DNA from: a bacterium
GTDB taxonomy: Bacteria; Hydrothermota; 32-111
Direction of reading: 5' to 3'
Assembly: GCA_050239825.1 (NCBI GenBank)
Contig: JBFXGO010000016.1
Span: forward strand, 1-46,474
Length of the DNA stretch: 46,474 nucleotides
Shown here: one piece after another, positions 20,859 to 46,474 of the stretch
How the letters are laid out: every line of letters begins with the position of its first letter
Numbering within the stretch: the stretch's first letter is position 1
Position numbers and translations under genes: made by a program
The notes under the pieces: model-generated
Database searches by the model: none
Told to the model about the DNA's origin: nothing
Seen by the model: the letters and a program-made list of their open reading frames with translations, nothing else

Positions 20859-23800
20859 CAACGATTTTTGTTTTGTCGTTTTCCGACGAGATAACAATCA
20901 ATCTGCTTGGATATGAAGAGGGTGAATTTGAATACATGCTCACTCCGGTTCTTGATTCGGATTCAAAGAACAATCTGCCTTTTCTGCTGTTTTCATTCGA
21001 CAAAAATCTTTCAAATGTTCATATAGATTCTTTTTTATTTTTAAACGAAGGCAGAACCGATGATTTTAAGCTTGAAAGTTTTGAGGGAAACATACCCCTC
21101 TCTCTTCCGGCTCCGGCATTGAAAAAAAACGAACCCGCGCTGTTTTCGGAAAAAATTCTTTTTCAGGATGATGCGCGGAGCTTGAGAGTGCATCCATTCA
21201 GATACAATGGAAAATATTTGACTTTTTTCAGGAAAGTGAAAATATTCTATACAGCCTATCCTAATCAGGGTGTGAAGAACTCTCCGGTCTATGATTATCT
21301 TATTGTCTGCCACGCCGATTATGACACGGCATTTGAGAGGCTGAAGATGTGGAAGGAACAACGAGGATTGAAAACACGGATAATAACAACGGATTCAATA
21401 TTCACATACTCAACCGGGCGCGATTCTGCCGAGAAATTAAGGAATTTTATCAAAAATGAATACACACTCTATGGGTTCAAATATCTTCTGTTGGGAGGAG
21501 ACAGAGCCACAATTCCAGTAAGAAGAATGTTTGCAATGGACTGCAATGCAGAGTATTATGCTGATGAGGATTCAATACCGGCAGACATATACTATTCCAA
21601 TCTGGACAAAGATTTTGACTTTGACAATGACGGAATCTTCGGAGAGGTTGAAGACTCTTCGGATTTGACTCAGGAAATTCTTGCAGGGAGAATTCTGTTT
21701 GACACAATATACTACGGACCCTCTCCTATAATAACGAGAATAATAGATTATGAAAAGACAAAAAATATAGAGCAGCTGAACAGGGGAATCTTCATGGGCA
21801 TGATTCTCTGGAATCCTCCCTTTACTTCCGGCGGGGAGGCAAAGGAGATGATATTCAATGACATCATCCCGCCATCCTTCCATGTTTTGAAATTTTATGA
21901 ACATCTGGGGCATTCCGGAAAACTTGACATACTGGATTCTCTGGATATGGGTTATGGAATAGTCAACCACAATGGGCACGGCTCTTTCAAGGGAATCTGG
22001 GTCGACACCCTGACGAGTTTGTCAAGGGGCGACATGACGGGTCTGACAAACGATTCAAAGACAGGGCTCTTCTACTCTATAGGATGCTGGGTCGGAGCAT
22101 TTGACAGGGACAATACAACATACAATCTCCATTCAATAACTCAGAATATGCAGAATTCTCCGACAGGAGGATATATATCCATAATAACAAACTCAAGGTA
22201 TGGATGGGGAGCTCCCGGATATCCCGGCTACGGTGTTTCGGATGTTCTTGATTACAGATTCTTCGAGATGCTCTTCTCCGATTCCGTCAAGGAGCCGGCT
22301 TATATTCTTAAAAAACTGAAAGAGGAGTATGCGCCGTTATCCTCGGAAGAGAATCTTTACAGATGGCATCAGTATCAGTTGAATTACTTCGGCGACCCTT
22401 CGACATCTATATACACCGGTTCACCGGATTCGCTCTTTATATCCTACAGAAAATATGATTCAGAACTCTATATTTACGCTTCTTATAAGACAGGCGCTCC
22501 GGCAGGAAACATGAATGTCTGCATATTTAAAGATACCATAATATCAAGAGGCGCAACGGATGCGAACGGACTCTTCATAGGCAGTATCAGCGGACTCGAC
22601 GATTCAATTGTCTGCGTTACAGTGACAGGAACAATGGCGACAACTTTCATCGACTCTCTCAATTTAGCTTCATACGGAAAAGATTCTGTGATTATATTTT
22701 GCGACACTCTTTACTCTGGGGCAAAAAACAATATCCGGATAGTAAATCCTTCATCTGCGTCATTAAGCATACTTGTTAAATCATCATTTATAGATACAAC
22801 AGTAACCGCCGAAGCAGGAGAGACTCTTAACTTGAATTACTCGCCTGTATTTTCAAAAGAAAATGTTGACATCCTGACATTCAGAATCAATGAGACAATG
22901 GAGACAGAGACCGTTTATGCGAAGGTGCTGATGTCAGTTATCTCCTTTGATTCTCTTAGGTTTGACAATACTCTTTTTAAAACTTCATTGAAAAGCAATC
23001 ATGACAAAATTATAAACAACATGAATCTCAGAGTTCTTGTTTACGGAACAGACACAATCCTAGACACTCTTCTGACAGGCGATTTCTTGAGCAGAGAGAA
23101 TTTCTCTGAAGCCACAGGAATACCTCCCGGTCTTGATTACATAACAGCGGAGGCGATTCTTTCAAAAGATGATACCCTGCTCTGCAGGATAAAGAGCTAT
23201 ATGAACAACGGCGAGTACTCATTTTTGGATGATTTTAATGCGGATTTGTCTAAATGGGAATACTCAACATCCTATTGGAATATAAATACAAATGAACAAC
23301 TGTATGCCGGAGAGGAAAGCGGTTATCTGAACTATATGAATGACACGCTGGTATCAAAGGATTTTTTCATATATCCGGGTTCCGTCTGCTCCCTCTATGT
23401 TGACGCATACCTTCCATCTCTTGAATTCATAGGCACTGAGCCGGTCTTTGATCTTGACGGACTATTCATCAGGATGATAAACAATGAAAACGATACTGCC
23501 ACTTTGGATTTTATCAGTTCGGGAGGAGCTCTTAAATCAATTCAGTCAATGCAGATAAAGGGTTGGCGCGAATACTTCTTTAAGAATGAATCTCCTGTTT
23601 CATCAAAAATATTTTTGAATTTCATCTCCGACAGCGTCATTACTGATTCAGGCATATATATAAGCTGTATAAAAGTTCATCCGCCATTCTACTATGCAGA
23701 ATCCACTTCAATAACCCGCGACGATAAAAATGTAATAGGAAGGGATAATGTGAAGTATTCACTGACAGGACTCCTTGGCAAGGTGACTGCCGAGATAATA

Positions 23801-23950
23801 ACTATTGACGGCAGAGTGATAAGAAGGTATAACTTTAATGACGCGGCGAGCGCTGTCATCTCTTTCGAGGGTGTGCCGAGCGGCGTCTATTTTGTAGTAT
23901 TTCGCGCAGGAAAAGCTAAATTCAAAGATAAACTGATAATACTGAAATAA
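20828..23950 (+). CDS. Gingipain-like C25 family cysteine peptidase with T9SS-like C-terminal domain
   Basis: YLLLGGD, ADIYYSNLD, GR, NHNGHG (catalytic His), YSIGCW (catalytic Cys), YFGDP; tail SGVYFV...KDKLIILK. Confidence 0.9.
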   Translation: MRKILLYLLLTTIFVLSFSDEITINLLGYEEGEFEYMLTPVLDSDSKNNLPFLLFSFDKNLSNVHIDSFLFLNEGRTDDFKLESFEGNIPLSLPAPALKKNEPALFSEKILFQDDARSLRVHPFRYNGKYLTFFRKVKIFYTAYPNQGVKNSPVYDYLIVCHADYDTAFERLKMWKEQRGLKTRIITTDSIFTYSTGRDSAEKLRNFIKNEYTLYGFKYLLLGGDRATIPVRRMFAMDCNAEYYADEDSIPADIYYSNLDKDFDFDNDGIFGEVEDSSDLTQEILAGRILFDTIYYGPSPIITRIIDYEKTKNIEQLNRGIFMGMILWNPPFTSGGEAKEMIFNDIIPPSFHVLKFYEHLGHSGKLDILDSLDMGYGIVNHNGHGSFKGIWVDTLTSLSRGDMTGLTNDSKTGLFYSIGCWVGAFDRDNTTYNLHSITQNMQNSPTGGYISIITNSRYGWGAPGYPGYGVSDVLDYRFFEMLFSDSVKEPAYILKKLKEEYAPLSSEENLYRWHQYQLNYFGDPSTSIYTGSPDSLFISYRKYDSELYIYASYKTGAPAGNMNVCIFKDTIISRGATDANGLFIGSISGLDDSIVCVTVTGTMATTFIDSLNLASYGKDSVIIFCDTLYSGAKNNIRIVNPSSASLSILVKSSFIDTTVTAEAGETLNLNYSPVFSKENVDILTFRINETMETETVYAKVLMSVISFDSLRFDNTLFKTSLKSNHDKIINNMNLRVLVYGTDTILDTLLTGDFLSRENFSEATGIPPGLDYITAEAILSKDDTLLCRIKSYMNNGEYSFLDDFNADLSKWEYSTSYWNINTNEQLYAGEESGYLNYMNDTLVSKDFFIYPGSVCSLYVDAYLPSLEFIGTEPVFDLDGLFIRMINNENDTATLDFISSGGALKSIQSMQIKGWREYFFKNESPVSSKIFLNFISDSVITDSGIYISCIKVHPPFYYAESTSITRDDKNVIGRDNVKYSLTGLLGKVTAEIITIDGRVIRRYNFNDAASAVISFEGVPSGVYFVVFRAGKAKFKDKLIILK

Positions 23951-28798: not shown

Positions 28799-32235
<3,437 letters not shown>

Positions 32236-33543: not shown

Positions 33544-34298
33544 AAGTGACAATACTCGGGTCAGGCACATCAACAGGAGTGCCTGTAATAGGATGCAAAT
33601 GCAGTGTCTGCTCCTCGGATGATTTAAAAGACAAAAGGACCCGCCCCGGAGTGCTTCTTAGCAAGGATAGATTCAATATACTGATTGATGCTTCGCAGGA
33701 GCTTAGACTGCAGCTGATAAACAGAACAGACAAAATAGATGCAATAATTATTACCCATGCGCATGCAGACCATATATTCGGACTTGATGACACAAGGGTG
33801 ATATCAATGAGATACAGCAAAGAGATGCCGATATATTGTTCGCAGGAGACCAAGAGAGAGATAATGAATATCTACTCGTATGTTTTCAGGGAGACTCAGG
33901 AGGGCGGAGGCAAACCGAAATTTGTTTTTCATGATATAGAAAATATAAATAATCTTGGTCCGTTCAAAGTGAAATCATTCAAGGTCTATCATGGAAAGAT
34001 GAAGATTGACGCATTCATAATAGATAAACTCGCAGTAGTGATGGATGCCTCTTACATTGGGAGAGAGGAGAGAGAGCTTATAAAGGATAATGCTGAGAGT
34101 ATAATAATCAACGGACTGAGGATGAGGCCTCACACAACTCATTTTTCAATATCCGAATCAGCATGCCTTATAAGAGCCCTCGGAATGAAGAGGGGATATA
34201 TACTGCATCTTTCGCATGACCTAAAACAAGAGGATCTCGAAAAAATTCTTCCCGAAAAAGTTTTTGCGGGATATGACGGAATGGAATTTGACGCATGA
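33540..34298 (+). CDS. MBL-fold metallo-hydrolase (PhnP-like)
   Basis: LGSGTSTGVPVIGCKCSVC, THAHADHIFGLDD, HLSH, GYDG. Confidence 0.92.
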   Translation: MKVTILGSGTSTGVPVIGCKCSVCSSDDLKDKRTRPGVLLSKDRFNILIDASQELRLQLINRTDKIDAIIITHAHADHIFGLDDTRVISMRYSKEMPIYCSQETKREIMNIYSYVFRETQEGGGKPKFVFHDIENINNLGPFKVKSFKVYHGKMKIDAFIIDKLAVVMDASYIGREERELIKDNAESIIINGLRMRPHTTHFSISESACLIRALGMKRGYILHLSHDLKQEDLEKILPEKVFAGYDGMEFDA

Positions 34299-36283
34299 CT
34301 GATTTTAAAGTTGTTTCACGATACTCTCCTGCCGGAGATCAGCCAAAGGCGATTGAAGAACTTTACAGAGGCATTGAGGAGAAAAAAAAGTATCAGGTGC
34401 TTCTCGGAATAACAGGTTCCGGAAAGACATACACGATGGCAAAAGTCATTGAGAGAGCCAATTTGCCGGTGCTGATACTCTCACACAACAAGACTCTTGC
34501 CGCTCAGCTTTACGGGGAGCTTAAATCTCTCTTCCCTCACAATGCAGTCGAATACTTTGTCTCATACTATGACTATTATCAGCCGGAGGCATACCTTCCC
34601 GCAAAGGATGTGTACATTGAGAAAGAGGCGACTATAAATGAATACATAGACAAAATGCGCCTTAGAGCGACTGCATCTTTATATGAAAGGGATGATGTTA
34701 TTATAGTCTCGTCAGTCTCATCAATATATACTTTGGGCTCTCCGGAGGATTATAACAATACAATTTTCAGCATAAGAAGAGGCAATTCATTGAGTCAGGA
34801 AAAGCTGATTGACAATCTCATTATGATGCAGTATGAGAGAAATGACATTGATTTCAAAAGGGCGAGATTCAGGGTTATGGGAGACACTATTGATATTTTC
34901 CCTTCTCATCTCGACTCTCCTGTGAAAGTGCAGTTCTTTGGCGATGAGATTGAGGAATTATTCGTGTTTGACGAATTGAATAATTCAAAAATAGAGGATA
35001 AAGAGGTTGTGTCAATGTTTCCCGCAAAGCATTTCATGTCAGGAGATGAAAAAATAAAAAGAGCCGTTGTCTCTATAAGAGAGGAACTGAAGGAGAGGGT
35101 AACTGAACTCAGGGGAATGGGGAAGATGCTTGAAGCTGAACGCCTGAATTCAAGAACCAACTATGACCTTGAGATGATGAAAGAGGTGGGATACTGCTCC
35201 GGAATTGAAAATTATTCCAGACATATTGACGGACGCGCTGAAGGGCAGAGGCCATATACTCTTGTAGATTATTTTAGAGGAGATTTTCTCACAGTAATAG
35301 ATGAATCGCATGTGACAATACCGCAGATAAGGGGAATGTACAATGGAGACAGAGCGAGAAAAATGAATCTTGTGGATTACGGATTCCGCTTGAAATCTGC
35401 TCTTGACAACAGACCTTTGAAACTGAATGAATTTGAAACAATAACCAAATCTATTGTCTGCATGTCCGCCACTCCTGAAGCGTATGAAATTGACAGGTCC
35501 GACGGCAAGGTTACTGAGATGATAATCCGGCCTACAGGTCTTATAGACCCTGAGGTCGTAATAAAGAAATCAGAAAACCAGATTGATGACCTTATGAATG
35601 AGATAAAAAATGTTGTGGATAGGGAGGAGAGGGTTCTGGTCACAACTCTGACAAAGAGGATGGCTGAATCCCTGACCGACTATCTGAAGCAGAGGAATTT
35701 CAGAGTCAAGTATATGCATTCGGATATCGATTCGATTGAGAGAGTTTCAATAATCAGGGGGCTCAGGCTCAAGGAATTTGATGTTCTTGTCGGGATAAAT
35801 CTTTTAAGAGAGGGGCTTGACCTTCCGGAGGTCTCTCTTGTGGCTATCCTTGATGCAGACAAAGAAGGTTTTTTAAGGAGCGAGACATCTCTTATCCAGA
35901 CAATAGGAAGAGCTTCGAGAAATGTGAGGGGAAGGGTCATTCTTTATGCGGACAAGATGACAAAATCCATCGATAAAGCAGTCTCTACGACAAACAAAAG
36001 AAGGGAATCCCAGATGAAGTATAATGAACTTATGGGGATCACTCCAAAGTCCATTTCAAGGTCTATTGAGGATATACTCGTTTTGACTGATGTAGCATCA
36101 AATGCGGATGTTGAGGAGGAAATAGAGACAAAGACAGAATCGATGTCAAACATAGAGAGGATGGAGCTTTTGGATTCTCTCACAAAGAAGATGCACGAGC
36201 TGTCCGCAGAGCTAGAATTTGAAAAAGCGGCCGAGGTGAGAGATATGATAAGAAAGGTAAGGAAAGAGATTAAGGATAATTGA
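34295..36283 (+). CDS. uvrB: Excinuclease ABC subunit B
   Basis: PAGDQP, GITGSGKT, FVSYYDYYQPEAY, DESH, GINLLREGLDLPEV, C-terminal UVR coil LEFEKAAEVRD. Confidence 0.99.
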   Translation: MTDFKVVSRYSPAGDQPKAIEELYRGIEEKKKYQVLLGITGSGKTYTMAKVIERANLPVLILSHNKTLAAQLYGELKSLFPHNAVEYFVSYYDYYQPEAYLPAKDVYIEKEATINEYIDKMRLRATASLYERDDVIIVSSVSSIYTLGSPEDYNNTIFSIRRGNSLSQEKLIDNLIMMQYERNDIDFKRARFRVMGDTIDIFPSHLDSPVKVQFFGDEIEELFVFDELNNSKIEDKEVVSMFPAKHFMSGDEKIKRAVVSIREELKERVTELRGMGKMLEAERLNSRTNYDLEMMKEVGYCSGIENYSRHIDGRAEGQRPYTLVDYFRGDFLTVIDESHVTIPQIRGMYNGDRARKMNLVDYGFRLKSALDNRPLKLNEFETITKSIVCMSATPEAYEIDRSDGKVTEMIIRPTGLIDPEVVIKKSENQIDDLMNEIKNVVDREERVLVTTLTKRMAESLTDYLKQRNFRVKYMHSDIDSIERVSIIRGLRLKEFDVLVGINLLREGLDLPEVSLVAILDADKEGFLRSETSLIQTIGRASRNVRGRVILYADKMTKSIDKAVSTTNKRRESQMKYNELMGITPKSISRSIEDILVLTDVASNADVEEEIETKTESMSNIERMELLDSLTKKMHELSAELEFEKAAEVRDMIRKVRKEIKDN

Positions 36284-36319: not shown

Positions 36320-36348
36320 TTGACCCGAAAAGAGCATTGTAGTATGAT
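36320..36348 (+). promoter_or_regulatory. Sigma70-type promoter heading the cassette array
   Basis: TTGACC-17 bp-TATGAT, followed by AGGAGG and the ATG at 36369. Confidence 0.65.
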
Positions 36349-36368
36349 TATTATAATCAGGAGGCAGG

Positions 36369-37307
36369 ATGAAGAGACTTTTGACATTGTTTCTTGTGAT
36401 TGGAGTAGTAGAGATGTATGGCCAGACAATAGAGGGTGAACTACAAACAGAGACACAGGCAGAGACAGATACAATACAGCAAGCAGATACGATTACTCTA
36501 CCCGATACTATTGATGTTGAAAAAAAACTACAAACCAGCGATTTTGAATTAACAGAAGATAGTTCAATAATAAAACAAAATGAAAATGACGAATTGAAAA
36601 GAAAAAATAACGAAATATATTGTTGTTGTATGCTTGATTGGAGAGGGTTTCAGAAAAGACAGAATCAAGATTCTTCAGCATATAGCATCGGATATACTTT
36701 GAATGTTTATCCCAGAGTATTTTATTCATTGTACGACGGTCGAACATTCTTAGGGGCGGATCAAGACGGATACCTTTTTGCAGGCAATCCATTTTGCTTG
36801 TTTCATAAGATTGAAGTAAGTCATAACATGAATCTATTAAATAAAATACTATTTAAAATAGGATATAATTATGAGTATTCAAATTCAATTGATAAAGTAG
36901 CAGATGTATATGTGAAATCATCTAATTTAGAATATTCCTTGCGTTATTATAACGGATTGAACCTATTTACATTTCATTCTTTGGGTATAAATATGTATAA
37001 AGAATTCGGCTGTTTTAGAATGGGATTGTCTAATGGGATTACATATATGAAACAAGAGTTTTATGCAGTATATTTAAGTGATGACGAGTGGTATGATATT
37101 GATGTAAATAGGTTTCATTATCAAATCGGTATGAATGCAGGAATTAATTATACAGTATCAAATCATGTGACACTCAATTTTGGTATGGAGTATAAAAAGT
37201 ATTTTCAAATGGCATCTTACGTGAACTACCCAAACATAATTTATGATGTAAGTAAGATAAATCCAGGAATGGTTATGCATTATATAACACTAACCTTCAA
37301 TTTTTAG
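36369..37307 (+). CDS. Cassette 1 gene A1: predicted outer-membrane beta-barrel protein
   Basis: Signal peptide shared with A2/A3, acidic Thr-rich linker, aromatic alternating strands, C-terminal YITLTFNF (BAM-type beta-signal). Confidence 0.65.
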   Translation: MKRLLTLFLVIGVVEMYGQTIEGELQTETQAETDTIQQADTITLPDTIDVEKKLQTSDFELTEDSSIIKQNENDELKRKNNEIYCCCMLDWRGFQKRQNQDSSAYSIGYTLNVYPRVFYSLYDGRTFLGADQDGYLFAGNPFCLFHKIEVSHNMNLLNKILFKIGYNYEYSNSIDKVADVYVKSSNLEYSLRYYNGLNLFTFHSLGINMYKEFGCFRMGLSNGITYMKQEFYAVYLSDDEWYDIDVNRFHYQIGMNAGINYTVSNHVTLNFGMEYKKYFQMASYVNYPNIIYDVSKINPGMVMHYITLTFNF

Positions 37308-37315
37308 GAGAAAAT

Positions 37316-39661
37316 ATGAAAAAGGTATTATTCTACATATTCATACTTTACTCTACTAACTTGTTTTCAACTCCAATAATATTCATAACAGGAATTAAAT
37401 CTGAGGGTGTGGACACAATGGGATTCCTAACATGGAATGATATCAAAAAAGAGAATCCGGACGATCCAATTTATTACTCTTGCATGCATCAAGCAGTCGG
37501 TTATAAAGGATATCAATTATCTCCAGTGTTAGATTGTAATAAATATGTTGTTTTACCTTCTGGATTAGATGAAAACACGATGTTCAATTTTTCATATTAT
37601 GATACTTCAAGTTCAATACCTGGATTAATTTCAATTTCTGCTGATAGTATTAAAGTAGGATTCAAGATATTTAATTACATTAATGCTTTGGGAGCAGAAG
37701 TTTGTGATACGATTGCTTTCCCTCCGTTTTTAAAACAGTTTAAAGACGATGAATTTGACTATTTTGAATACTTTCCCAAATATATAGATGAATTTAGGTC
37801 GTATTCAATTATAATTAATGGAGAATTAATAGCTGGCTATAAAGTGACGCAAGAGTCTAAAGTATATAGACAATATTGGCGCACCAACCGCTATGCAGAG
37901 CATTTATGTAAATTTATAGATAAAGTATTAGCAGCCACTGGTGCGAGTAAAGTTAATCTTGTGTGTCATTCAATGGGTGGATTGGTTGCAAGGGCGGCTC
38001 TAATTGGATATGGATATTCGTCAAAAGTATATAAAATAATAACCGTAGGAACACCGCATCAATCACTGGAAGGTGATGCTGGAGAGTTGTTTTATAGATT
38101 ATTTGAAGTACCAAATGAATGGCAGAGATCAGGAGAGTTGATGGAGTTAGATGTTGAATATGATTATACCTATGGTGATATTGAATTTTATGATTTAGAA
38201 ACAGGTGTCGTTACGAATTTCGCTGATATGCTTGGTTACGATGTGAGTCCAACAAAGATTGTTTGCATTTCAGGCGATAGGAATGCTGGAGTTGGAGGAA
38301 CATTATACTCCAATGAATCAAATGACGGATTTATTTTTAATAGCATCTCAAAACTTTCTCCAAACAGTCTTGCAGATTATAATCCGATTATATATGCAAG
38401 TCATTCCATGTCTGGAGATATAGGAAGTTTCGGGAATTTAGGACAATCTGAATTATCATTAACTCACTGCACTTATGTAACAGAATTCATAAAAAAATGG
38501 CTTATAGATGATACCATAATTGAATTTACTGGAACTGCTGAGGATTTAGATGCTAAATTTTATGTGGTTAACGATGAGGAAGGCAATAAAACTTCTCGTT
38601 CAGTTAGAGTTCAAATTGAAAATAACGGAACATCCAATATTAATTATGGGGATTTTTTGTCGTTATTAGCTTATCCCATAGAGAAAATTGTAATAAGTGG
38701 TGATACCAATGAGAAAAGCCCATATGTTGGAATATCATTATCTAATGCGTATAACAATAATAGAATTATAGGTAATCCGATGGGAAGTCCAATCTTTATG
38801 ATGAATTGTGAATATAATAACACTACTTTTGATTTAACAGATGAATATCGCTCTGCAATTTATTTATATGATATGAAAGGACTAATAACCACTGATAAAA
38901 TTTACAATTATGCTCCTTTCGACAACTGGGTGAATGCTGAAGCACCGTATGTTAAGTTGCTGCCAAGCGCAACAGTTTTAACAGTGTTTACAGCTCTAAA
39001 CACATACACTATCGACTGGGAATCAAATGATATAGCTGTAAGGAATAGACTGTGGTATATAAGAGCTGGAAGTATAGAGATAATAGACAGCATGATACCC
39101 GGTTCAGCAATGAGTAAGAGTTTTAGGATACCGCCACTCAGGAGCAGTAAATCACACGGAATACCGGAGTATAATTTAATGAATATGTATCTTCGTTTTG
39201 AACTTGATGACAACGGCTATTTTTGCGAAGACAATAAATGGATAACAGTCAGTACGCCCGACTGGAACCCAGATAGTTTAAAATTAGTATATCAGGATGA
39301 GGATTCAATAAAAGTGAAATGGACAGACAGCTATAATTTAGTTGACAGAATAATAAGGTCAAACGACAACATGCAAAGGGATGTTTCTCCATTAAATACA
39401 TATACGGATACGAACTTTATAAGGGGTATGAATAACAACTATGAGGTACATTCGAGATGGGTATATCCGAACGGGGATATACTAATAAGCGAGAATGACA
39501 ATAACACACATAGAGAAACAGTGTTTGGAATACCGTGCAATGCTCCCAAAGCATATCCGATAGCTTGTATTTGGCAGCCAAACAATAAGGCATTGATAAA
39601 GTGGGTTGATAATTCAAGAAAAAGTGCTAATATGGGATTATATAATCAGGAGGCAGGATGA
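37316..39661 (+). CDS. Cassette 1 gene B1: secreted lipase-like alpha/beta-hydrolase, truncated in an FN3-like domain
   Basis: Signal peptide, KVNLVCHSMGG nucleophile elbow, TVGTPH, NDG, ASHS; ends WVDNS plus the junction-encoded tail RKSANMGLYNQEAG. Confidence 0.8.
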   Translation: MKKVLFYIFILYSTNLFSTPIIFITGIKSEGVDTMGFLTWNDIKKENPDDPIYYSCMHQAVGYKGYQLSPVLDCNKYVVLPSGLDENTMFNFSYYDTSSSIPGLISISADSIKVGFKIFNYINALGAEVCDTIAFPPFLKQFKDDEFDYFEYFPKYIDEFRSYSIIINGELIAGYKVTQESKVYRQYWRTNRYAEHLCKFIDKVLAATGASKVNLVCHSMGGLVARAALIGYGYSSKVYKIITVGTPHQSLEGDAGELFYRLFEVPNEWQRSGELMELDVEYDYTYGDIEFYDLETGVVTNFADMLGYDVSPTKIVCISGDRNAGVGGTLYSNESNDGFIFNSISKLSPNSLADYNPIIYASHSMSGDIGSFGNLGQSELSLTHCTYVTEFIKKWLIDDTIIEFTGTAEDLDAKFYVVNDEEGNKTSRSVRVQIENNGTSNINYGDFLSLLAYPIEKIVISGDTNEKSPYVGISLSNAYNNNRIIGNPMGSPIFMMNCEYNNTTFDLTDEYRSAIYLYDMKGLITTDKIYNYAPFDNWVNAEAPYVKLLPSATVLTVFTALNTYTIDWESNDIAVRNRLWYIRAGSIEIIDSMIPGSAMSKSFRIPPLRSSKSHGIPEYNLMNMYLRFELDDNGYFCEDNKWITVSTPDWNPDSLKLVYQDEDSIKVKWTDSYNLVDRIIRSNDNMQRDVSPLNTYTDTNFIRGMNNNYEVHSRWVYPNGDILISENDNNTHRETVFGIPCNAPKAYPIACIWQPNNKALIKWVDNSRKSANMGLYNQEAG
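39390..39617 (+). repeat. 228-bp direct repeat shared with 45852-46079
   Basis: Manual alignment at offset 6462 shows a single mismatch (C39499 / T45961); identity stops after ttgataattcaa. Confidence 0.95.
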
Positions 39662-39729
39662 AGAGACTTTTGACACTGATTCTTGTGATTGGAGTATTGG
39701 GGCTATACGGACAGACAACAGAGGGTGAA
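39539..39729 (+). repeat. Cassette junction repeat J1
   Basis: 191 bp matching 42755-42945 (offset 3216) with 11 mismatches; the core 39614-39664 is identical. Confidence 0.95.
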
Positions 39730-40668
39730 CTACAGATAGAAGCTGATACAACACAAAATGAAGATACAATAATTAAAGTCGATACTATTGGTGCTGAGAA
39801 TTTATCGATTGAGGGAGATACCGTTTCAACCATTGAAGAAAACATTGAAAGCATGAGTGTTTCAAGTAAGGGCAATGATGATTCACTGATTACAATAAAG
39901 AAGAATCCATGGCTTTATGATTGGAGATATGGGTGTTTGACAGATGGTCTGACCTATTTAATACCGATGATAACACTTTATTCAATTGCCGAGAAGGTTG
40001 ATGATAAATTTTTACCTCTTGATAATTACTGCACCCCATGTATATATCCAATAGGATTAGTCTTTGCTGAAAGGATGTTAAAGAGTATAATTTTAGAAAA
40101 AACTGAATATGAAATTAAATCAAAATCAAATTTATCTATTTGCTTCCAAACTGGACCATCACTTCCTCATTATACTAAACTGTTTGATTCTCAAGAAGGA
40201 GTTATCTTTCCATCCGTATCAATGATTTTACTAGCAAATTTTAAAGTCAAGTATGATTTTCAAATTAATCAGGACCTGAAATTATGTATAAATATTGATT
40301 ACTATGATCATTTTTATTTACGGAATATTAATCCGGGATTTATTTCTACAAGTTTTGGGTTGGAAATAAAGGGTTTTGATATTAATTTAGAGAAAGTCAT
40401 TTTTGGATATTATAATGAAATATCCCAAGGTCAATACCAAAAATTTGTATCAAATGAATATAAAATAATTGAAATTGATAGTAGCTACATAGTTAATTTC
40501 AAGTATGACTTCTGGGGTGTTGGAATTGGCTGGAGTAAAAAGTATAAGATATGGAAAGAACTATATATTGAACCAATGTTGAGTTATAAATTCATTTATA
40601 CATTCGATTTTAGTTCAGGAAGCATAGTTTGTCTTGCTGGTGGCTTGGGAATAGGTTATAGCTTTTAG
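39658..40668 (+). CDS. Cassette 2 gene A2: predicted outer-membrane beta-barrel protein
   Basis: Shared signal peptide MKRLLTLILVIGVLGLYGQTTEGE; C-terminal GGLGIGYSF beta-signal. Confidence 0.65.
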   Translation: MKRLLTLILVIGVLGLYGQTTEGELQIEADTTQNEDTIIKVDTIGAENLSIEGDTVSTIEENIESMSVSSKGNDDSLITIKKNPWLYDWRYGCLTDGLTYLIPMITLYSIAEKVDDKFLPLDNYCTPCIYPIGLVFAERMLKSIILEKTEYEIKSKSNLSICFQTGPSLPHYTKLFDSQEGVIFPSVSMILLANFKVKYDFQINQDLKLCINIDYYDHFYLRNINPGFISTSFGLEIKGFDINLEKVIFGYYNEISQGQYQKFVSNEYKIIEIDSSYIVNFKYDFWGVGIGWSKKYKIWKELYIEPMLSYKFIYTFDFSSGSIVCLAGGLGIGYSF

Positions 40669-40677
40669 GAGGAAAAA

Positions 40678-42877
40678 TTGAAAAATAGTATTTTATTAAT
40701 TATTTTATTATTTTCATTTTTATTTGCATATTCTAATGAAGTATTACCAAACATCATATTTATTCACGGAATAAGCGAAGAGGCAATACCAGATTTAAAA
40801 AGAGATAATGATGATGGATATAAGAAAGGTTCACTATTTTCATGGCATCCTTTGCGATATAATGAATCTTTAGGAAAGTATATAGAAGTGGACAGCACGG
40901 CTTTGCTTAGAATATTAGGTTATAAAGGATACAAAAAAGGGAGTCCCTTTGACTGCACAATAGACTCATATCCAAGAGATGCTTCCGGGAATGTTGTTTA
41001 CAATTTTAGCTATTATAATCCGGATGGAGATACTGGTGTTATTGGGAGCGGAGAGGATGAAGCCGGTAATCCCTTATTTATTCCAGCTTCTGAAAAATAT
41101 CAAGACGATTATTTGCTTGCATTCAAGCATGGCCAATGGGCAAAACACGTTGCTGTTTTCATAGAAAAAGTTTATAACAAGTCAGGAAAGAAAGTTTATA
41201 TAGTTGCTCATTCAATGGGAGGACCTGTAGTAAGAGCTGCAATGACTTTCTATGGAGCAGGAGAATATGTCGCGAAAGTAATAACTATAGGTTCTCCAAA
41301 CCTTCCCTTTACTCAATTTGATGCTGTTGAGGATTTTGTAGCAAATGTAGCTGATTATCATGAATGGCAAGAGGTAGGAGAATTGCTGGAATTGGGTGCA
41401 GATGTTGAACTCCATGCCGGTAGTGTTGCTTTTGTTTCAACTTCAAATCCTACTTTAATTAAGCCATATTTGGAATTTTTATATGACAATGATTTTATAA
41501 GGCTAAATAGAGGAAGCGTTAAATTAGCAACCGTTGTTGGAGCGAGGAAAACCATTTTGATGTCAATGTTGGAACAAAATGATGGTTTCATACCATGTTC
41601 ACAACAGAGCTTGGATTTTGCAGAAAGAAAACCTATAATATACGCAAGTCATTCAAGATTGAAAGAGTTTTTGAAAGTACCAATAAATGACACAATTCCT
41701 GAATACGCTGAGCAATATTCTACATTTCTTATCGAATTCATCAAGCATTGGATGATAGATGATACAGTCATAATTTATGATAAGAATAAACTGTCATCTT
41801 TGTCGGGGAATTTTGGATTTTACCCAAATGAAGAAAACCCGACGTCACGGTCTTTACGGCTATTAATTAATAGCTTAGATTCATACAATAACAAAACATA
41901 ATAATGGGATAATGGCAGTAGTGGGAACTACATTAAAAGAAAACTTTGATTCACGGGATGACATAGGGCCAACATATGCATATGATTTATCAGTATTATC
42001 AGAAAACAATAGAGTCAGAGGCCAACTAAGCGGAAGCCCTCTTTATACAAGTTTCTGCGGATATGATGATAAAGAAAATGATGTTTACTATTCGAGAATA
42101 TGGTTATATGACATGAACGGATACATTTTCCCTGATAGCGGGAACATGACAATTCCGCATGAATTGAGTTGGAAAAGCGCCACCGCGCCTTTTGTTGAAA
42201 TCAGATCAAAAATGCCTGTTACAAAAGCATTTAACAGCTATACTTTTGCTTGGAAGAGTAATGACATTTCGGCGAAATGTGATTTAAAAGTGCGAAACAC
42301 CTCCCTTGGTGAATATTGGTTGAAGGATATAGCATTGGCAAATTTGAACTATACATATAAGATAGCTCCAATGAGCAGTGGAAAGAGCATAACTGAAAGC
42401 AAGTTTAAGTTAAGGTTTCATCTTGATGATTATAAAAATTGGATTGAAGATTCCATAGGATCATATACACATACTCCCGACTGGAACTCAGACACATTAA
42501 AATTAGTATATCAGGATGAGGATTCGGTAAAAATATCATGGAAAGATCTGTATCATAATGAGGATTTAATATTTAGAAATGATGTGTTAATTGGAAGTTC
42601 GCCGTACAGAAATAGCTTTGTTGACAGTGATTATGAATTTAACACAGACTATACATATAGAGTAAATTCCGTATATCATTATACTTCAACCGATTCAATT
42701 GTCAGTATAAACGATAATTCTACAAATTATCTTTCTGTTAAAACGAATAGTTTAAATGCTCCCAAAGCATATCCGATAGCGTGTATCTGGCAACCTAACA
42801 ATAAGGCATTGATAAAATGGATTGACAACTCAAGAAAAAGTGCTAATATGGGATTATATAATCAGGAGGCAGGATGA
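40678..42877 (+). pseudogene. Cassette 2 gene B2: lipase-like hydrolase split by a +1 frameshift (ORFs 40678-41901 and 41912-42877) and truncated at the junction
   Basis: IIFIHG, AHSMGG, NDG, ASHS in the first ORF; the second ORF is collinear with the C-terminal halves of B1/B3; an extra A near 41900. Confidence 0.8.
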
Positions 42878-42945
42878 AGAAACTTTTGACATTGTTTCTT
42901 GTGATTGGAGTATTGGGGCTATACGGACAGACAACAGAGGGTGAA
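42755..42945 (+). repeat. Cassette junction repeat J2
   Basis: Copy of 39539-39729. Confidence 0.95.
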
Positions 42946-43824
42946 ATACAGACAGAAGCAACTACAACACAGCAGGTGGATACAATTACTCTACCCGATA
43001 CTATTGATGTTAAAGAATTGCAGATTGAAGATGATACAGCTTCATCAATTAAAGATTCATTATTTACGGGAGAAAGCAAAAAAGACCAAAAAGAGATAAT
43101 AGAAAAGAAGGATAGCCCGATATCATGCTGTTTAAACGGAAAAACCCAATCGGAACAAAAATCGAAATGGAACTTTGGAATAGGGTATGTCGCTGAATAT
43201 AATTATGCCGGACCCCATTTGACAGCAGATTATTTGGACAGAGTTGAATGGTTCGGTGAACTAAGCTTAAATCAACTGTTGACATTATTTAATTATTGGA
43301 TGAATGGTGCTGAAATGTATATAAAATGCTCAAAATTAAACAGATTATTCTTAAGCAATACAACAAGCTATGCATACACAGAAAGAACCAATTGTGCAAT
43401 TATGACAGATTATGTCATTCTTGATGATTCAACTTTAGCAGCAAATTATAATGTTTATAATATAAAGAAAATTTCTTCTAGTTTTTTATTTTCTAAAAAT
43501 AACTTTGTTTTTGGTGGACCTTGTATTGAAATTACAGATGTAGCAGGATTAGAAACTCTATATAAACGAAAGGATGAACAATGGCAAAAAGATAGTACAA
43601 AAGTCCAAAGGATTGGATTGGGCCTGGGAGTTGCTTTCAGAGTTATATATAATTCAATGCAGGTGAATAATATGAAATTGCCAATATTATGGTTTGGAAT
43701 AAGAATAGGTCAAACGATAGAGGTGTGGAATAACTCGCCATGGAAGGAAGTTTGGTGTGATAGCAAACTTATAGTTGGTTTCACTGGCATTAATTTCGGG
43801 CTTCAACTAAATTGGGGAAAATAA
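42874..43824 (+). CDS. Cassette 3 gene A3: predicted outer-membrane beta-barrel protein
   Basis: Shared signal peptide, DTITLPDTIDV shared with A1, IGLGLGVAFR strand, C-terminal GINFGLQLNWGK. Confidence 0.6.
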   Translation: MKKLLTLFLVIGVLGLYGQTTEGEIQTEATTTQQVDTITLPDTIDVKELQIEDDTASSIKDSLFTGESKKDQKEIIEKKDSPISCCLNGKTQSEQKSKWNFGIGYVAEYNYAGPHLTADYLDRVEWFGELSLNQLLTLFNYWMNGAEMYIKCSKLNRLFLSNTTSYAYTERTNCAIMTDYVILDDSTLAANYNVYNIKKISSSFLFSKNNFVFGGPCIEITDVAGLETLYKRKDEQWQKDSTKVQRIGLGLGVAFRVIYNSMQVNNMKLPILWFGIRIGQTIEVWNNSPWKEVWCDSKLIVGFTGINFGLQLNWGK

Positions 43825-43825
43825 A

Positions 43826-46474
43826 ATGAAAAATATATTGATTTTATCTCTTGTAATGCTTATTTCGATATTAGTTACATCCGATAATATACCTCAAATC
43901 TATATTCACGGAACAAAGTCTGAGGCAGTACCCCTGCTTAGGTTTTTTGATTTAACAAAACTCAAAATAGTTTTAGCTGGTGGTTGGACTACTTGGTATC
44001 CAATGGATCCAATAGATTCTTCTCTACTTTTTCCAACTGCAATGACACGAATAGTTGAGGAGGGATATGATGGTTATAGGTATGGAAAAACAATCGATGG
44101 CGAAGATGCAGTAATGTGTGATAAGAATACTGAATTAATGATTACGAATTATCCAAAATCGGTTTATAATTTTTCATATTATCGTCAAGACGGAGGACCG
44201 GGAATAATCGGGAGCAACGGACGACTTGAATGTATGGTTCAAAAAAATGTTAAAATTTATGTATGTTCGGATACGAGCGCACAAGAAATATTTCCGGAGT
44301 ATTATATGGCGAATAAAGGTACACCAAATGATATATATACAGAATCAATTAATGGATACGACTATACGGTTACAGAGATAAAGTTGTTTGATTTTACAAA
44401 TAATTCTGATGTTGAATGCTGGTCTGAAAACTTGGCAGTTTTTATTGATAAAGTGTTGGCTGCAACAGGAGCAGATAAGGTAGATTTAATATGTCATTCT
44501 ATGGGTGGAGTAGTAGCTCGAGCCGCAATTAAGTATTATGGGTGTGAAAACAAGGTTAGAAAATTGCTAACCATAGGAACACCCAATCACCCCTTTGGAA
44601 CTCGTTTTGGGGAATTACTTTATTCCTTAAATCCAACCAATCCCGAGTGGATGAAGCACGGGGAACACTGGGAAATGGATGTTGAAGAATGTGGACGAAT
44701 TCTTTTCAAAAATATTGAGACAGAGGAAACAGGCCTATATCTCGACTTGATGGGATATGATATAAATATTGAAAGAGTAGCAACTATTGTTGGTAATATC
44801 GGGGTTGATTTAATATCGGACGATAATGATGGATGCACTGGAGTTGAGCAGTCCATTTTGGACTGTGCAGAATTTAATGCAGTAATTGATGCAACTCATT
44901 CATCAAGTGAAGAAAATTTAGAGCATTGTGAATGTACAAGTACCTATGTAACATCTTTTATTAAAAGCTGGATGATTGATGGCGACAGCTTTGTGTTTGA
45001 TGGAGAGATAACAGATTATGGATTTGGGATTGTTGGAAATATAAATAATCCCACCTCAAAATCAATCCGACTGATTGTTGATGGAACAGATGAATTTGGT
45101 AATGATTTAAAGAGTTACGAAGGAATATTGTGCGGTGTTGTGACATCAATTTATGAACATCAGAACATTACAGATGATGTCGGTCCTACAATGGGAATAG
45201 ATTTTACAAACATTACAAATAACAATAGAAAACCTGGCATTCTAAGAGGCAGTCCGATTTACTTGAAGGAGTGTCCGTGGTCAAGTAATGCAATATTCAC
45301 AAAATATCATCCAAAGGCATCCTTTTACGACATGAATGGTCTAATAGAGATTCCTGAGATAGAACATGATTATAGTTTCAACTGGGGAGATGCAATAGCT
45401 CCATATGTAGATTTGCTTCCCGGTGTTGCAGATTTTGCTCTTGCTACAGCTCTAAGCACATACACTATTAACTGGATATCGAACGACATATCAGTAAGAA
45501 ATAGATTATGGTATATAAGAGCAGGAAGTATAGAGATGATAGACAGTATGATACCGGGCTCAGCAATGAGTAAGAGTTTTAGGATACCGCCATTAAGAAG
45601 TTCAAAAACAATTCCTTCTCATCCGTCAACTTATAATCTGATGCAGTTTAATGTAAGATTTGAACTTGATGATAACGGGTATTTTTGCCAAGACAGCAAA
45701 TGGCTGACTGTCAGTACGCCCGATTGGAATCCGGATAATTTAAGCTTAGTATATCAAGATGAGGATTCGATAAAACTGGCTTGGACAGATACATTTAACT
45801 TAGTTAACAGAATAATAAGGTCAAATGACGATATGCAAAGGGATGTTTGTTCATTAAATACATATACGGATACGAACTTTATAAGGGGTATGAATAACAA
45901 CTATGAGGTACATTCGAGATGGGTATATCCGAACGGGGATATACTAATAAGCGAGAATGATAATAACACACATAGAGAAACAGTGTTTGGAATACCGTGC
46001 AATGCTCCCAAAGCATATCCGATAGCTTGTATTTGGCAGCCAAACAATAAGGCATTGATAAAGTGGGTTGATAATTCAAATCATGAGGATGGATATAGGA
46101 TAAAGATAAAGGAAAACGATACACTTAAAGGAACAAAGGATACAATAATAAATTTAGCGGAGGATCCTGACACATTGGAATGGATACATCAAACAACGAG
46201 AACAGGGCAAATGAAGTATATTGTATATTCAATGAATAAAGGAGCATTTTCAAAAGATTCTGTTGAATATATCAATTATAGAGGATACGGGACACCGTTT
46301 GTATCATTAGATAGTATTGACCTAAGCAAAGGAACCGTAAGAATAACAGGGGATACAATAATAACGGGAACGAGGAGAAGACTGAATGGAGATATACTTT
46401 CAGTAGAATCATATAAAGAAGGAGTTGAAAATAAGATTCTAAAATCCGAATTTGTAAAAGATAGTAATGCACAG
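43826..46474 (+). CDS. Cassette 3 gene B3: untruncated secreted lipase-like hydrolase with FN3-like domains; runs off the window (at least 883 codons, absent from the ORF track)
   Basis: Manual translation from ATG 43826 (MKNILILSLVMLISILVTSDNIPQIYIHG) shows no stop: KVDLICHSMGG, TIGTPNH, DNDG, ATHS, then WVDNSNHEDGYRIKIKE continuing past the point where B1/B2 are cut. Confidence 0.88.
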   Translation, partial: MKNILILSLVMLISILVTSDNIPQIYIHGTKSEAVPLLRFFDLTKLKIVLAGGWTTWYPMDPIDSSLLFPTAMTRIVEEGYDGYRYGKTIDGEDAVMCDKNTELMITNYPKSVYNFSYYRQDGGPGIIGSNGRLECMVQKNVKIYVCSDTSAQEIFPEYYMANKGTPNDIYTESINGYDYTVTEIKLFDFTNNSDVECWSENLAVFIDKVLAATGADKVDLICHSMGGVVARAAIKYYGCENKVRKLLTIGTPNHPFGTRFGELLYSLNPTNPEWMKHGEHWEMDVEECGRILFKNIETEETGLYLDLMGYDINIERVATIVGNIGVDLISDDNDGCTGVEQSILDCAEFNAVIDATHSSSEENLEHCECTSTYVTSFIKSWMIDGDSFVFDGEITDYGFGIVGNINNPTSKSIRLIVDGTDEFGNDLKSYEGILCGVVTSIYEHQNITDDVGPTMGIDFTNITNNNRKPGILRGSPIYLKECPWSSNAIFTKYHPKASFYDMNGLIEIPEIEHDYSFNWGDAIAPYVDLLPGVADFALATALSTYTINWISNDISVRNRLWYIRAGSIEMIDSMIPGSAMSKSFRIPPLRSSKTIPSHPSTYNLMQFNVRFELDDNGYFCQDSKWLTVSTPDWNPDNLSLVYQDEDSIKLAWTDTFNLVNRIIRSNDDMQRDVCSLNTYTDTNFIRGMNNNYEVHSRWVYPNGDILISENDNNTHRETVFGIPCNAPKAYPIACIWQPNNKALIKWVDNSNHEDGYRIKIKENDTLKGTKDTIINLAEDPDTLEWIHQTTRTGQMKYIVYSMNKGAFSKDSVEYINYRGYGTPFVSLDSIDLSKGTVRITGDTIITGTRRRLNGDILSVESYKEGVENKILKSEFVKDSNAQ
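45852..46079 (+). repeat. 228-bp direct repeat shared with 39390-39617
   Basis: One mismatch relative to the B1 copy. Confidence 0.95.

Follow-up and report, generated by a model that had tools for sequence, protein, structure and literature searches.

Can the cargo of a type IX secretion system (T9SS) be diversified by exchanging cassettes that carry its enzymatic part? The question is raised by a locus at one end of a 46,474-nt stretch of DNA, hereafter the window, which is an entire contig (JBFXGO010000016.1; C29 in our numbering) of the metagenome-assembled genome (MAG) of a WOR-3 bacterium (GCA_050239825.1, here G000; 2.1 Mb, 99% complete). Downstream of uvrB, the list of open reading frames (ORFs) and a repeat search reveal three consecutive two-gene units, A1-B1', A2-B2' and A3-B3, where A denotes the first gene of a cassette, B the second, and B' a truncated B that lacks the constant body of its full-length homologs. 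We consider it reasonably probable that these units form a real three-cassette array of a single genome, in which recombination in the conserved flanks reshuffles which hydrolase head sits on the exported body. The arrangement appears to be a new, mirror-polarity form of the loci known to hold cassettes or orphan modules, so far confined to one WOR-3 genus. The locus is organized as follows:

34295..36283, plus strand: uvrB, a 662-aa ORF and left flank of the insertion, with orthologs in all five relatives searched (71-91% identity).
36320..36368, plus strand: region 5' of A1, with a promoter-like site at 36320-36348 and AGGAGG at 36359; homology to the other units starts only at about 36352.
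36369..37307, plus strand: A1, type 1, with signal peptide, acidic linker, CCC motif and a probable small outer-membrane beta-barrel.
37316..39661, plus strand: B1', an open frame of 781 aa; predicted truncated lipase-like hydrolase with fibronectin type III (FnIII)-like domains, without body and without C-terminal sorting domain (CTD).
39390..39616, plus strand: conversion tract in B1', identical to B3 45852-46078 at 226 of 227 nt.
39602..39661, plus strand: joint 1, with TTGATA-N16-TAATAT at 39606-39633, AGGAGG at 39648 and a start/stop overlap ATGA.
39658..40668, plus strand: A2, type 2, 53-56% identical to the A2-like genes of the metagenome contigs L038 and L044.
40678..42877, plus strand: B2', truncated; a frameshift at about 41890-41912 separates 40678-41901 from 41912-42877.
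42818..42877, plus strand: joint 2, with TTGACA-N16-TAATAT at 42822-42849 and AGGAGG at 42864; otherwise as joint 1.
42874..43824, plus strand: A3, type 3, 80% identical to the A of unit b in the related genome G001.
43826..46474, plus strand: B3, the first 883 aa of a predicted full-length T9SS cargo; the frame is open at the contig end.
Within B3, plus strand: predicted hydrolase at residues ~1-390, FnIII-like domains at ~390-725, joint motif up to S751 (46076-46078), then the start of the body.
45379..46078, plus strand: 3' homology arm of B3; B1' has its counterpart at 38923-39616, and B2' has part of it at 42472-42832.

The ends of the units are conserved and their interiors very divergent, with about 40% DNA identity across the interiors in G000. 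A 5' repeat lies at 36352, 39641 and 42857 (88-89% identity) and a 3' repeat at 39539, 42755 and 46001 (90%); between B1' (38923-39469) and B3 (45379-45931) a longer homology of 79-86% is found. The array has a GC content of 34%, the whole window one of 39%. An initial annotation of this DNA had listed the three units with A starts at 36369, 39658 and 42874 and had described conserved ends around a divergent interior, and our searches bear out both. It had also noted that B1 and B2 stop at the same codon while only B3 reads on; this is correct, but B2 is not the single ORF that was assumed, as it is broken by the frameshift.

What distinguishes the upstream units is the way in which their B genes end. 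After the motif KW[VI]DNS, B1' and B2' share a 14-residue tail, RKSANMGLYNQEAG, followed by the stop codon, where B3 instead continues KWVDNS-NHEDGY. The 42 nt on the 3' side of the joint are identical at joints 1 and 2, and an alignment of the regions 5' of every A copy identifies the tail as the upstream region of the A gene that follows. Hence, each B' represents a B gene that was interrupted after DNS and whose frame continues into the promoter region of an A gene. The joint contains a promoter-like site, TTGAYA-N16-TAATAT, with an extended -10 TG. The A copies on the G000 contigs C3 and C56 possess the same upstream sequence, but no B tail with the DNS joint stands before it; on C3 there is only a B2-like stub that lacks this joint. 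Across the 19 genomes of the class, a 32-nt degenerate pattern of the joint was found at five sites in three genomes, namely in all three members of the genus and in none of the 16 others, and the reversed control gave none. Confined to the genus and with a control of zero, the joint is no chance match, and its distribution demonstrates, for the sequences compared, a single origin in the ancestor of this WOR-3 genus. A scan for sigma-70-like promoters yielded no enrichment (68 sites versus 55.8 +/- 7.8 in shuffled sequences); what is noteworthy is solely that the joint sites stand at a conserved position. No terminator-like site was detected between any B' and the next A, and the insertion boundaries yielded no convincing target duplications or scars of mobile elements.

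Because the window ends within B3, the constant C-terminus lies outside it and had to be deduced from other sequences. The B3 tail (residues 746-883) is matched nowhere else in the MAG, and the middle of the body (approximately residues 897-1778 of the G001 ortholog) is absent from the bin. Two further genomes of the genus, G001 and G002, encode full-length B orthologs of 1981 and 1971 aa. Their last 204 residues match two contig ends of G000, C7:2-613 and C18:61320-60709, with 91% amino acid identity; the two ends share 97% DNA identity up to the stop codon, beyond which they diverge. Both are predicted to contain the T9SS type A sorting domain TIGR04183 (cutoff 23 bits; 32.6 bits at C7:431-604 and 31.6 bits at C18:60718-60891), as is the 1981-aa B of G001 (25.6 bits); the corresponding Pfam model PF18962 scores 21.9-25.6 bits, under its cutoff of 27. 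With the body found in another genus, residues 700-883 of B3 share 85% identity. In G002, a 159-aa gene follows 12 nt after uvrB; its G000 ortholog directly follows the body end on C18, and the next eleven genes are collinear in both genomes. This synteny leads to a G000 locus with the order uvrB-[A1 B1'][A2 B2'][A3 B3...body...CTD]-flavodoxin-like gene. Orthology and gene order thus indicate that B3 runs on to approximately 1,970 aa, with a predicted FnIII-like body of about 1,200 aa and a T9SS type A sorting domain. Relative to G002, the array constitutes an insertion of about 13-14 kb, and no A or B homolog was found within about 11 kb downstream of uvrB in G002 and in two genomes of the sister genus, G010 and G012.

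The trafficking signal that the initial annotation had expected at the C-terminus, and for which it had suggested a search with TIGR04183, is therefore present above cutoff at the end of a long constant body. Its assumption of one constant C-terminus, by contrast, has to be given up. The G001 contig breaks right at the end of uvrB, and the G001 array corresponds on its left side to the G000 contig C56 (typA-like gene, membrane-protein gene, A, B start, contig end) and on its right side to C7 (body end, then a PorV-family gene at 1046-2029); hence, G000 possesses at least two full-length bodies at different loci. More paralogs with other bodies are located on C41, C50 and C18, and C3 ends in another array. 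On C41 (30564-37332), an A-like gene (254 aa) precedes a B-like gene (1916 aa) whose long body is of another kind and which possesses a CTD of its own; the first ~84 codons of the B-like gene lie in another frame, owing to a frameshift or an assembly error near 31592. On C18 (7830-10403, minus strand), a decayed copy is represented by an A-like gene of 289 aa, an ORF of 212 aa, a B stub of 135 aa and a CTD fragment of 134 aa that stands apart. The segment C3:74717-77489 contains a divergent A (272 aa), an A2-like fragment, the B2-like stub, an intact A and a B start at the contig end; the stub is frameshifted, lacks the DNS joint and is 96% identical in amino acids to B2' residues 40-116.

The comparison with congeners reveals that cassette types are shared between species and that the type attached to the body differs. 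A1 and B1' are 73% and 78.6% identical to the terminal A of G001 and to residues 1-764 of its full-length B, respectively, and A3 and B3 are 80% and 87.5% identical to unit b of G001, whose B is a stub of 154 aa. The body is fused to type 3 at the uvrB locus of G000 and to type 1 in G001, and in G002 it carries yet another type; across species the body is 80-87% identical versus about 50% for the N-modules. In a set of 5.8 billion sequences, full-length proteins with this body derive only from G001 and G002 (three clusters, the third partial).

Within the B genes, the closest relative changes from segment to segment. Over codons ~1-500, B1' is closest to the G001 B (80-96% nucleotide identity); over codons ~500-690, it is B3 that is closest to the G001 B (82-90%). 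In the last 227 nt before the joint, B1' and B3 differ at a single position, whereas orthologs are only 54-90% identical, from which we conclude that the recombination was recent; an exact match of 118 nt (39500-39617 and 45962-46079) overlaps this tract. The B' of L038 is a mosaic of a B2-type hydrolase and a B3-type middle part, with the switch at a conserved FIKxW[LM]IDD motif. Between B1' of G000 and its counterpart on L044, the synonymous divergence (dS) is 0 over codons 130-390 and 0.86 over codons 520-650, and on L044 the A barrel and the first 130 B codons form one diverged patch. We did not rely on the ratio of nonsynonymous to synonymous divergence (dN/dS) to judge whether the truncated copies are under selection, as divergent patches were possibly imported from full-length donors. 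Recombination in the 3' repeat, which the initial annotation had only postulated, can thus be demonstrated from segment-wise closest relatives, mosaics and the nearly identical tract. The comparison of relatives that it had proposed shows, moreover, that number, order and content of the cassettes are not fixed.

Homologs of B3 were detected in 12 of the 41 genomes searched (including G000), and in 7 of 13 within the family. The G001 array consists of [A][B' 150 aa][A][B' 154 aa][A][B 1981 aa], followed by a PorV-family gene. At the G002 locus, an IS200-like gene and a B' tail remnant precede [A][B 1971 aa]; the gene in question (L026:105-1085, G002:C105; 44.3 bits) encodes a Y1 transposase, lies directly upstream of the remnant, and is a feature of the G002 locus only. 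On the metagenome contig L039, a tail remnant is likewise followed by [A][B] of the G002 type. The independent 5,166-nt contig L044 displays [A1-like][B1' 789-aa ORF][A2-like][B2-like start], i.e. types 1 and 2 in the same order as in the window; its B1' is 90% identical to that of the window and has an identical tail, and its second B stops after about 168 residues, near the contig end. L044 is filed under a MAG of Vulcanibacillus (Firmicutes), yet carries a WOR-3-type array, and was probably mis-binned. The 25.9-kb metagenome contig L038 contains an [A2-like] gene, an intact B2-type B' of 734 aa ending in DNSHQSANIKIL and a stop codon, and the next A; like L044, it carries the joint of the window, and by eye a short ORF before this array resembles a transposase fragment. 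In the sister genus, the body is 80-83% identical to that of G001 (G010, G006 and G012), and all three contigs (L027, L028 and L029) break inside the 3' homology region, for which repeats or population heterogeneity are possible causes. The B3 query retrieved no hydrolase N-module in G010 and G006, and in G012 a single 41% match to its residues 198-384, located at a contig end.

How well are the stored copies preserved? We judged nine upstream B' copies, excluding the second B of L044 and all copies cut by contig ends. Three possess long open frames: B1' of G000 (781 codons), B1' of L044 (789) and B' of L038 (734). The others comprise one frameshifted gene (B2' of G000), three stubs of approximately 100-154 aa (two in G001, one on C3 of G000) and two tail remnants (G002 and L039). 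Among the A genes beside B' and in terminal units, 13 are intact and one (on C3) is a fragment. With most B' decayed, these copies are probably leftovers and occasional donors rather than maintained genes. The initial annotation had spoken of spare N-terminal modules kept upstream; body-less copies cut at a common joint do exist there, but they do not form a well-kept set.

By its Pfam matches, the N-terminal part of B is a lipase-like alpha/beta hydrolase, for which lipolytic activity is predicted. For B1', PGAP1 (36.6 bits, cutoff 24.3), Abhydrolase_1 (35.5, cutoff 25.8) and Lipase_2 (28.8, cutoff 20.3) are above cutoff, and the closest PDB entries by sequence are family I lipases of Burkholderia and Pseudomonas (E = 9e-8), Bacillus subtilis LipA and PhaZ7, with matches around HSMGG...GTPH. 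All nine B-type sequences that were aligned retain the motifs HSMGG, [NS]DG and A[ST]H[SG]; by analogy, we take the Asp of the second and the His of the third to be members of the catalytic triad. The N-terminus of B is hydrophobic by eye and modelled as a helix at residues 2-18, and that of B3 is a putative Sec signal peptide. An AlphaFold2 (AF2) model of the 883 residues of B3, based on 17 alignment rows, has a mean predicted local distance difference test score (pLDDT) of 55, with a confident hydrolase core, beta-sandwich domains up to residue ~725 and values below 50 for residues 726-883. Measured on this model, the B' truncation falls about 26 residues beyond the last confidently folded domain. 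Foldseek searches with it returned only generic strings of FnIII domains (TM-scores 0.1-0.39), and no Pfam domain other than the CTD was identified in the body. The secretion machinery is represented in G000 by SprA, whose matches in a single frame of 1815 aa sum to 407.6 bits (cutoff 200), and by three genes of the PorV/PorQ family above cutoff. Matches to the T9SS type A sorting domain number 72 in 2.1 Mb, of which 68 exceed the cutoff, a very heavy cargo load for a WOR-3 bacterium; a literature search for WOR-3 together with type IX secretion retrieved no report.

The interpretation of A is more challenging. It starts with a segment that resembles a signal peptide; an acidic linker, which is conserved, an invariant CCC and a variable C-terminal part of 200-220 residues follow. 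In 7 of 7 type-1 A proteins aligned, the CCC (e.g. 36621-36629 in the window) stands between the acidic linker and the variable domain. The C-terminal residue is aromatic, and then always F, in 10 of 13 intact copies. For 15 A variants, no Pfam or NCBIfam family was found above cutoff, the best hits below it being OmpW (E = 0.15) and OMP_b-brl_2 (E = 0.027), and an AF2 model of A1 from a seven-row alignment (pLDDT 33) shows beta-hairpins only, in residues 143-311. An Atlas feature search (score 0.96) pointed to clusters of outer-membrane beta-barrels, one of which has PF13505 on 47% of its members. The variable domain is probably a small outer-membrane beta-barrel; the beta-barrel of the initial annotation thus has the Atlas clusters as a lead, but neither a family match nor a confident model behind it. 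The A family is a near-orphan: nine hits among 484 candidates from the 5.8-billion-sequence set, and seven representatives at E <= 0.001 among 1.84 billion clusters.

On these grounds we propose the following model. A cassette consists of A, with signal peptide, acidic linker and variable domain, together with the N-module of a secreted lipase-like serine hydrolase, and only the last B (B3) retains the constant body and the T9SS type A sorting domain. After its single origin in the ancestor of the genus, the joint has spread by unequal homologous recombination. The conserved flanks comprise the promoter, signal and linker region of A at the 5' end of a cassette and B residues ~500-751 at the 3' end; homologous recombination and gene conversion within them keep shuffling the cassettes and thereby alter the hydrolase module on the exported body. 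A crossover between the arm of a B' and that of the terminal B should fuse the upstream module to the body and delete the intervening DNA; such a fusion is a direct consequence of recombination between direct repeats, though it was not observed. Variation of a surface or secreted lipase and of the neighbouring outer-membrane protein may be useful to the cell.

Loci of this kind are known. In the contact-dependent inhibition (CDI; cdiA-CT/cdiI), Rhs and MafB systems, orphan truncated modules lie next to a full gene and are swapped by homologous recombination. Like them, the array combines a conserved trafficking part with a variable enzymatic part and a conserved sequence at the boundary; the spare modules have no trafficking part, stand beside the full gene and are each accompanied by a small neighbour gene; recombination at the boundary can put a spare on the full gene, and the neighbour genes outlast the truncated enzyme pieces. 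Unlike them, the array has an N-terminal variable part, upstream spares and a partner gene 5' of the enzyme in all loci examined. Export would proceed by Sec and a C-terminal sorting domain (T9SS), the partner appears to be secreted and probably resides in the outer membrane, and each spare has its own start codon, ribosome-binding site and signal peptide; the array is, in addition, known here from sequence alone. To our knowledge, loci that store spare enzymatic modules beside a delivery gene have been known only with an N-terminal delivery part. For Rhs, the polarity described is opposite to that of the array (10.1101/2025.05.08.652813).

Is the array real? Being derived from a metagenome bin, with a contig that crosses the exact 118-nt repeat twice and an assembly that breaks 396 nt past the last joint, it could in principle be an artefact, in which the assembly linked strain-specific alleles of a single A-B locus through shared repeats. 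We deem this very improbable. The window has two diverged copies of the B'-to-A joint and five other assemblies contain it too, L044 independently has a type-1 B', the joint and a type-2 A, and synteny places the body end beside the usual neighbour of uvrB. Read data were used as Logan contigs only, from three runs (X1 to X3); X1 is possibly the source of the MAG, so that its depths would not be independent, and per-contig depths are a poor measure of copy number. In X1, the uvrB flank has a depth of 20.7, unit 1 depths of 20.2, 31.8 and 25, unit 2 of 21.2 and 21.5, and unit 3 of 18.1 and 17.6. The unit interiors are thus close to the single-copy flank, unlike the fractional depths of co-assembled alleles, which speaks weakly against the co-assembly that the initial annotation had named as a possible refutation. 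Past the joint, X1 bins show about twice the depth of the unit interiors, with a second sequence variant at about half depth; X2 and X3 cover next to nothing of the stretch. One X1 Logan contig (depth 2.7, side 36, 90% likeness) joins the A3 linker at 42988 to the A2 linker at 39868; a recombinant and a relative are both possible sources, and the signal is too weak for an interpretation. With L044 carrying B1'-joint-A2-type, the B2' arm only 89-90% alike and synteny demanding a body, the connection of B3 to the body is the sole consistent one.

Several observations weigh against an array that keeps exchanging its cassettes. No fusion of B1' or B2' to the body, no deletion product and no circle was found in the Logan contigs, none of which spans a repeat; switching is therefore documented only on the evolutionary scale, in three species and three metagenome contigs. 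Six of the nine upstream B' are decayed. The continuity between B3 and C18 rests on synteny and orthology and not on contiguous sequence, the middle of the body being missing from the MAG. Finally, the dN/dS values of 0.15-0.3 may stem from selection that acted on donor copies and not on the truncated ones. A rival explanation is neutral duplication and decay, in which the units would be rotting leftovers of unequal crossing-over without a role as donors, and their conserved ends would reflect only ancestry and constraint on the promoter and signal of A. The high share of frameshifted, stub-like or remnant B', the single origin of the joint and the lack of population-level switching in the Logan contigs fit this explanation, which we nevertheless regard as fairly unlikely, because near-identity of 226/227 nt between a truncated and a full-length copy, against 54-90% to orthologs, shows ongoing exchange. 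Moreover, the N-module differs in three congeners while the body stays 80-87% identical, and three truncated copies hold frames of 734-789 codons at 34% GC. Alternatively, each A-B' pair could work on its own, with a tail-less hydrolase that, for example, stays in the periplasm or is passed to the outer membrane by A, so that a lipase would be paired with a channel for hydrophobic substrates and the array would be an ordinary expanded family for nutrient acquisition. Every unit has its own promoter-like site, ribosome-binding site, start codon and signal peptide, the truncation spares the confidently folded domains, and A has its weak hints of OmpW and OMP_b-brl_2. But these hints lie far under cutoff, most B' are broken while the A genes persist, and autonomous pairs would leave the mosaic flanks and the changing fusion partner unexplained; we judge this explanation improbable.

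A more far-reaching explanation, to which we give tentative and limited credence, is a mirror image of polymorphic effector/immunity loci. The N-module of B would be an antibacterial (phospho)lipase delivered to the cell surface by the T9SS, A its cognate outer-membrane protector, and the orphan modules would lie upstream; the reversal of polarity relative to CDI, Rhs and MafB would follow from the C-terminal position of the T9SS signal. The locus would then be the first polymorphic effector system built for the T9SS, a doubtful claim in our eyes as well, with N-terminal lipase warheads and type-matched protectors encoded upstream being recombined onto an FnIII stalk with CTD. In agreement with it, the A barrel and the B hydrolase form one contiguous variable block between conserved arms, A types move with B types between G000 and G001, and the motifs of the presumed catalytic triad persist in all nine sequences. 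A is also intact where B' has decayed (13 copies versus one fragment), including both A genes beside the G001 stubs; this better survival of A is the trait most like orphan immunity genes and keeps the explanation alive. Yet nothing indicates toxicity or protection, A is secreted and falls into none of the known immunity families, and the solved structures nearest to the hydrolase belong to ordinary secreted lipases and to PhaZ7, none of them a known effector. The coupling between A and B is loose: on L044, B1' is 90% identical to that of G000, but its A only 51% to A1. A complex prediction for A1 (85-312) and B1 (20-440) with alignments scored 0.00; no controls were run, and it weighs neither way. 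We therefore prefer, with the reservations given, the array of exchangeable cassettes.

Other systems share single features with such an array. The pilE/pilS, vlsE and msp2 loci have conserved flanks, hypervariable cores and partial donors near the expression site, and segmental conversion produces mosaics. Unlike these, the donors of the array possess a promoter-like site, ribosome-binding site, ATG and signal peptide and so are not silent; furthermore, G000 has at least two full-length sites, the cassette covers two genes, and switching is seen across species only. MARTX toxins have a C-terminal signal for the type I secretion system, and recombination alters their effector content. They resemble the array in that a large secreted protein combines conserved repeats with a modular effector region whose content differs from strain to strain; they differ in variable modules internal to one gene, with neither an upstream store nor a partner gene known. 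TANFOR proteins of the Bacteroidetes and the Fibrobacteres-Chlorobi-Bacteroidetes group are proposed T9SS-linked polymorphic toxins with N-terminal signal peptides, whose export by the T9SS is presented there as a hypothesis (PMC7073777). The TANFOR domain is described as N-terminal, with a C-terminal toxin and an immunity gene downstream, and the proteins lack a CTD (PMC7073777). The array has the opposite polarity, and a TANFOR domain was not found at it. The gingipains and HagA of Porphyromonas gingivalis are T9SS cargo with discrete catalytic and adhesin variants and mosaics unrelated to strain phylogeny, which, like the array, are reshuffled by domain rearrangement and allelic exchange (PMC5266723). 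The enzymes among them are proteases, and the account given there includes no truncated upstream array, common truncation joint or co-varying upstream partner gene (PMC5266723). A literature search at the level of titles and abstracts, supplements excluded, that combined T9SS with polymorphic toxin/immunity or with lipase/interbacterial terms found no description of the arrangement.

Elsewhere in the window, two genes bear the T9SS tails that the initial annotation had reported, with TIGR04183 matches at 1350-1535 and 23765-23941. The first (126-1544) encodes an LVIVD-repeat beta-propeller protein and lies upstream of a gene for a bacterial alpha-2-macroglobulin of 1827 aa (2111-7594). The second (20828-23950) encodes a protein of 1040 aa with Peptidase_C25 (158.7 bits) in addition to the sorting domain at 23765-23941, possibly a PorU-like sortase or gingipain-like cargo.

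The locus can explain recurrent contig breaks in the MAGs compared here. It also provides a testable case for a role of the T9SS in interbacterial antagonism, a point left open in the account of the TANFOR proteins (PMC7073777). If the swap is functional, T9SS cargo can diversify by cassette exchange, and WOR-3, a candidate phylum represented by metagenomes only, would devote resources to the joint variation of a lipase, at the surface or secreted, and of a lineage-specific family of outer-membrane proteins.

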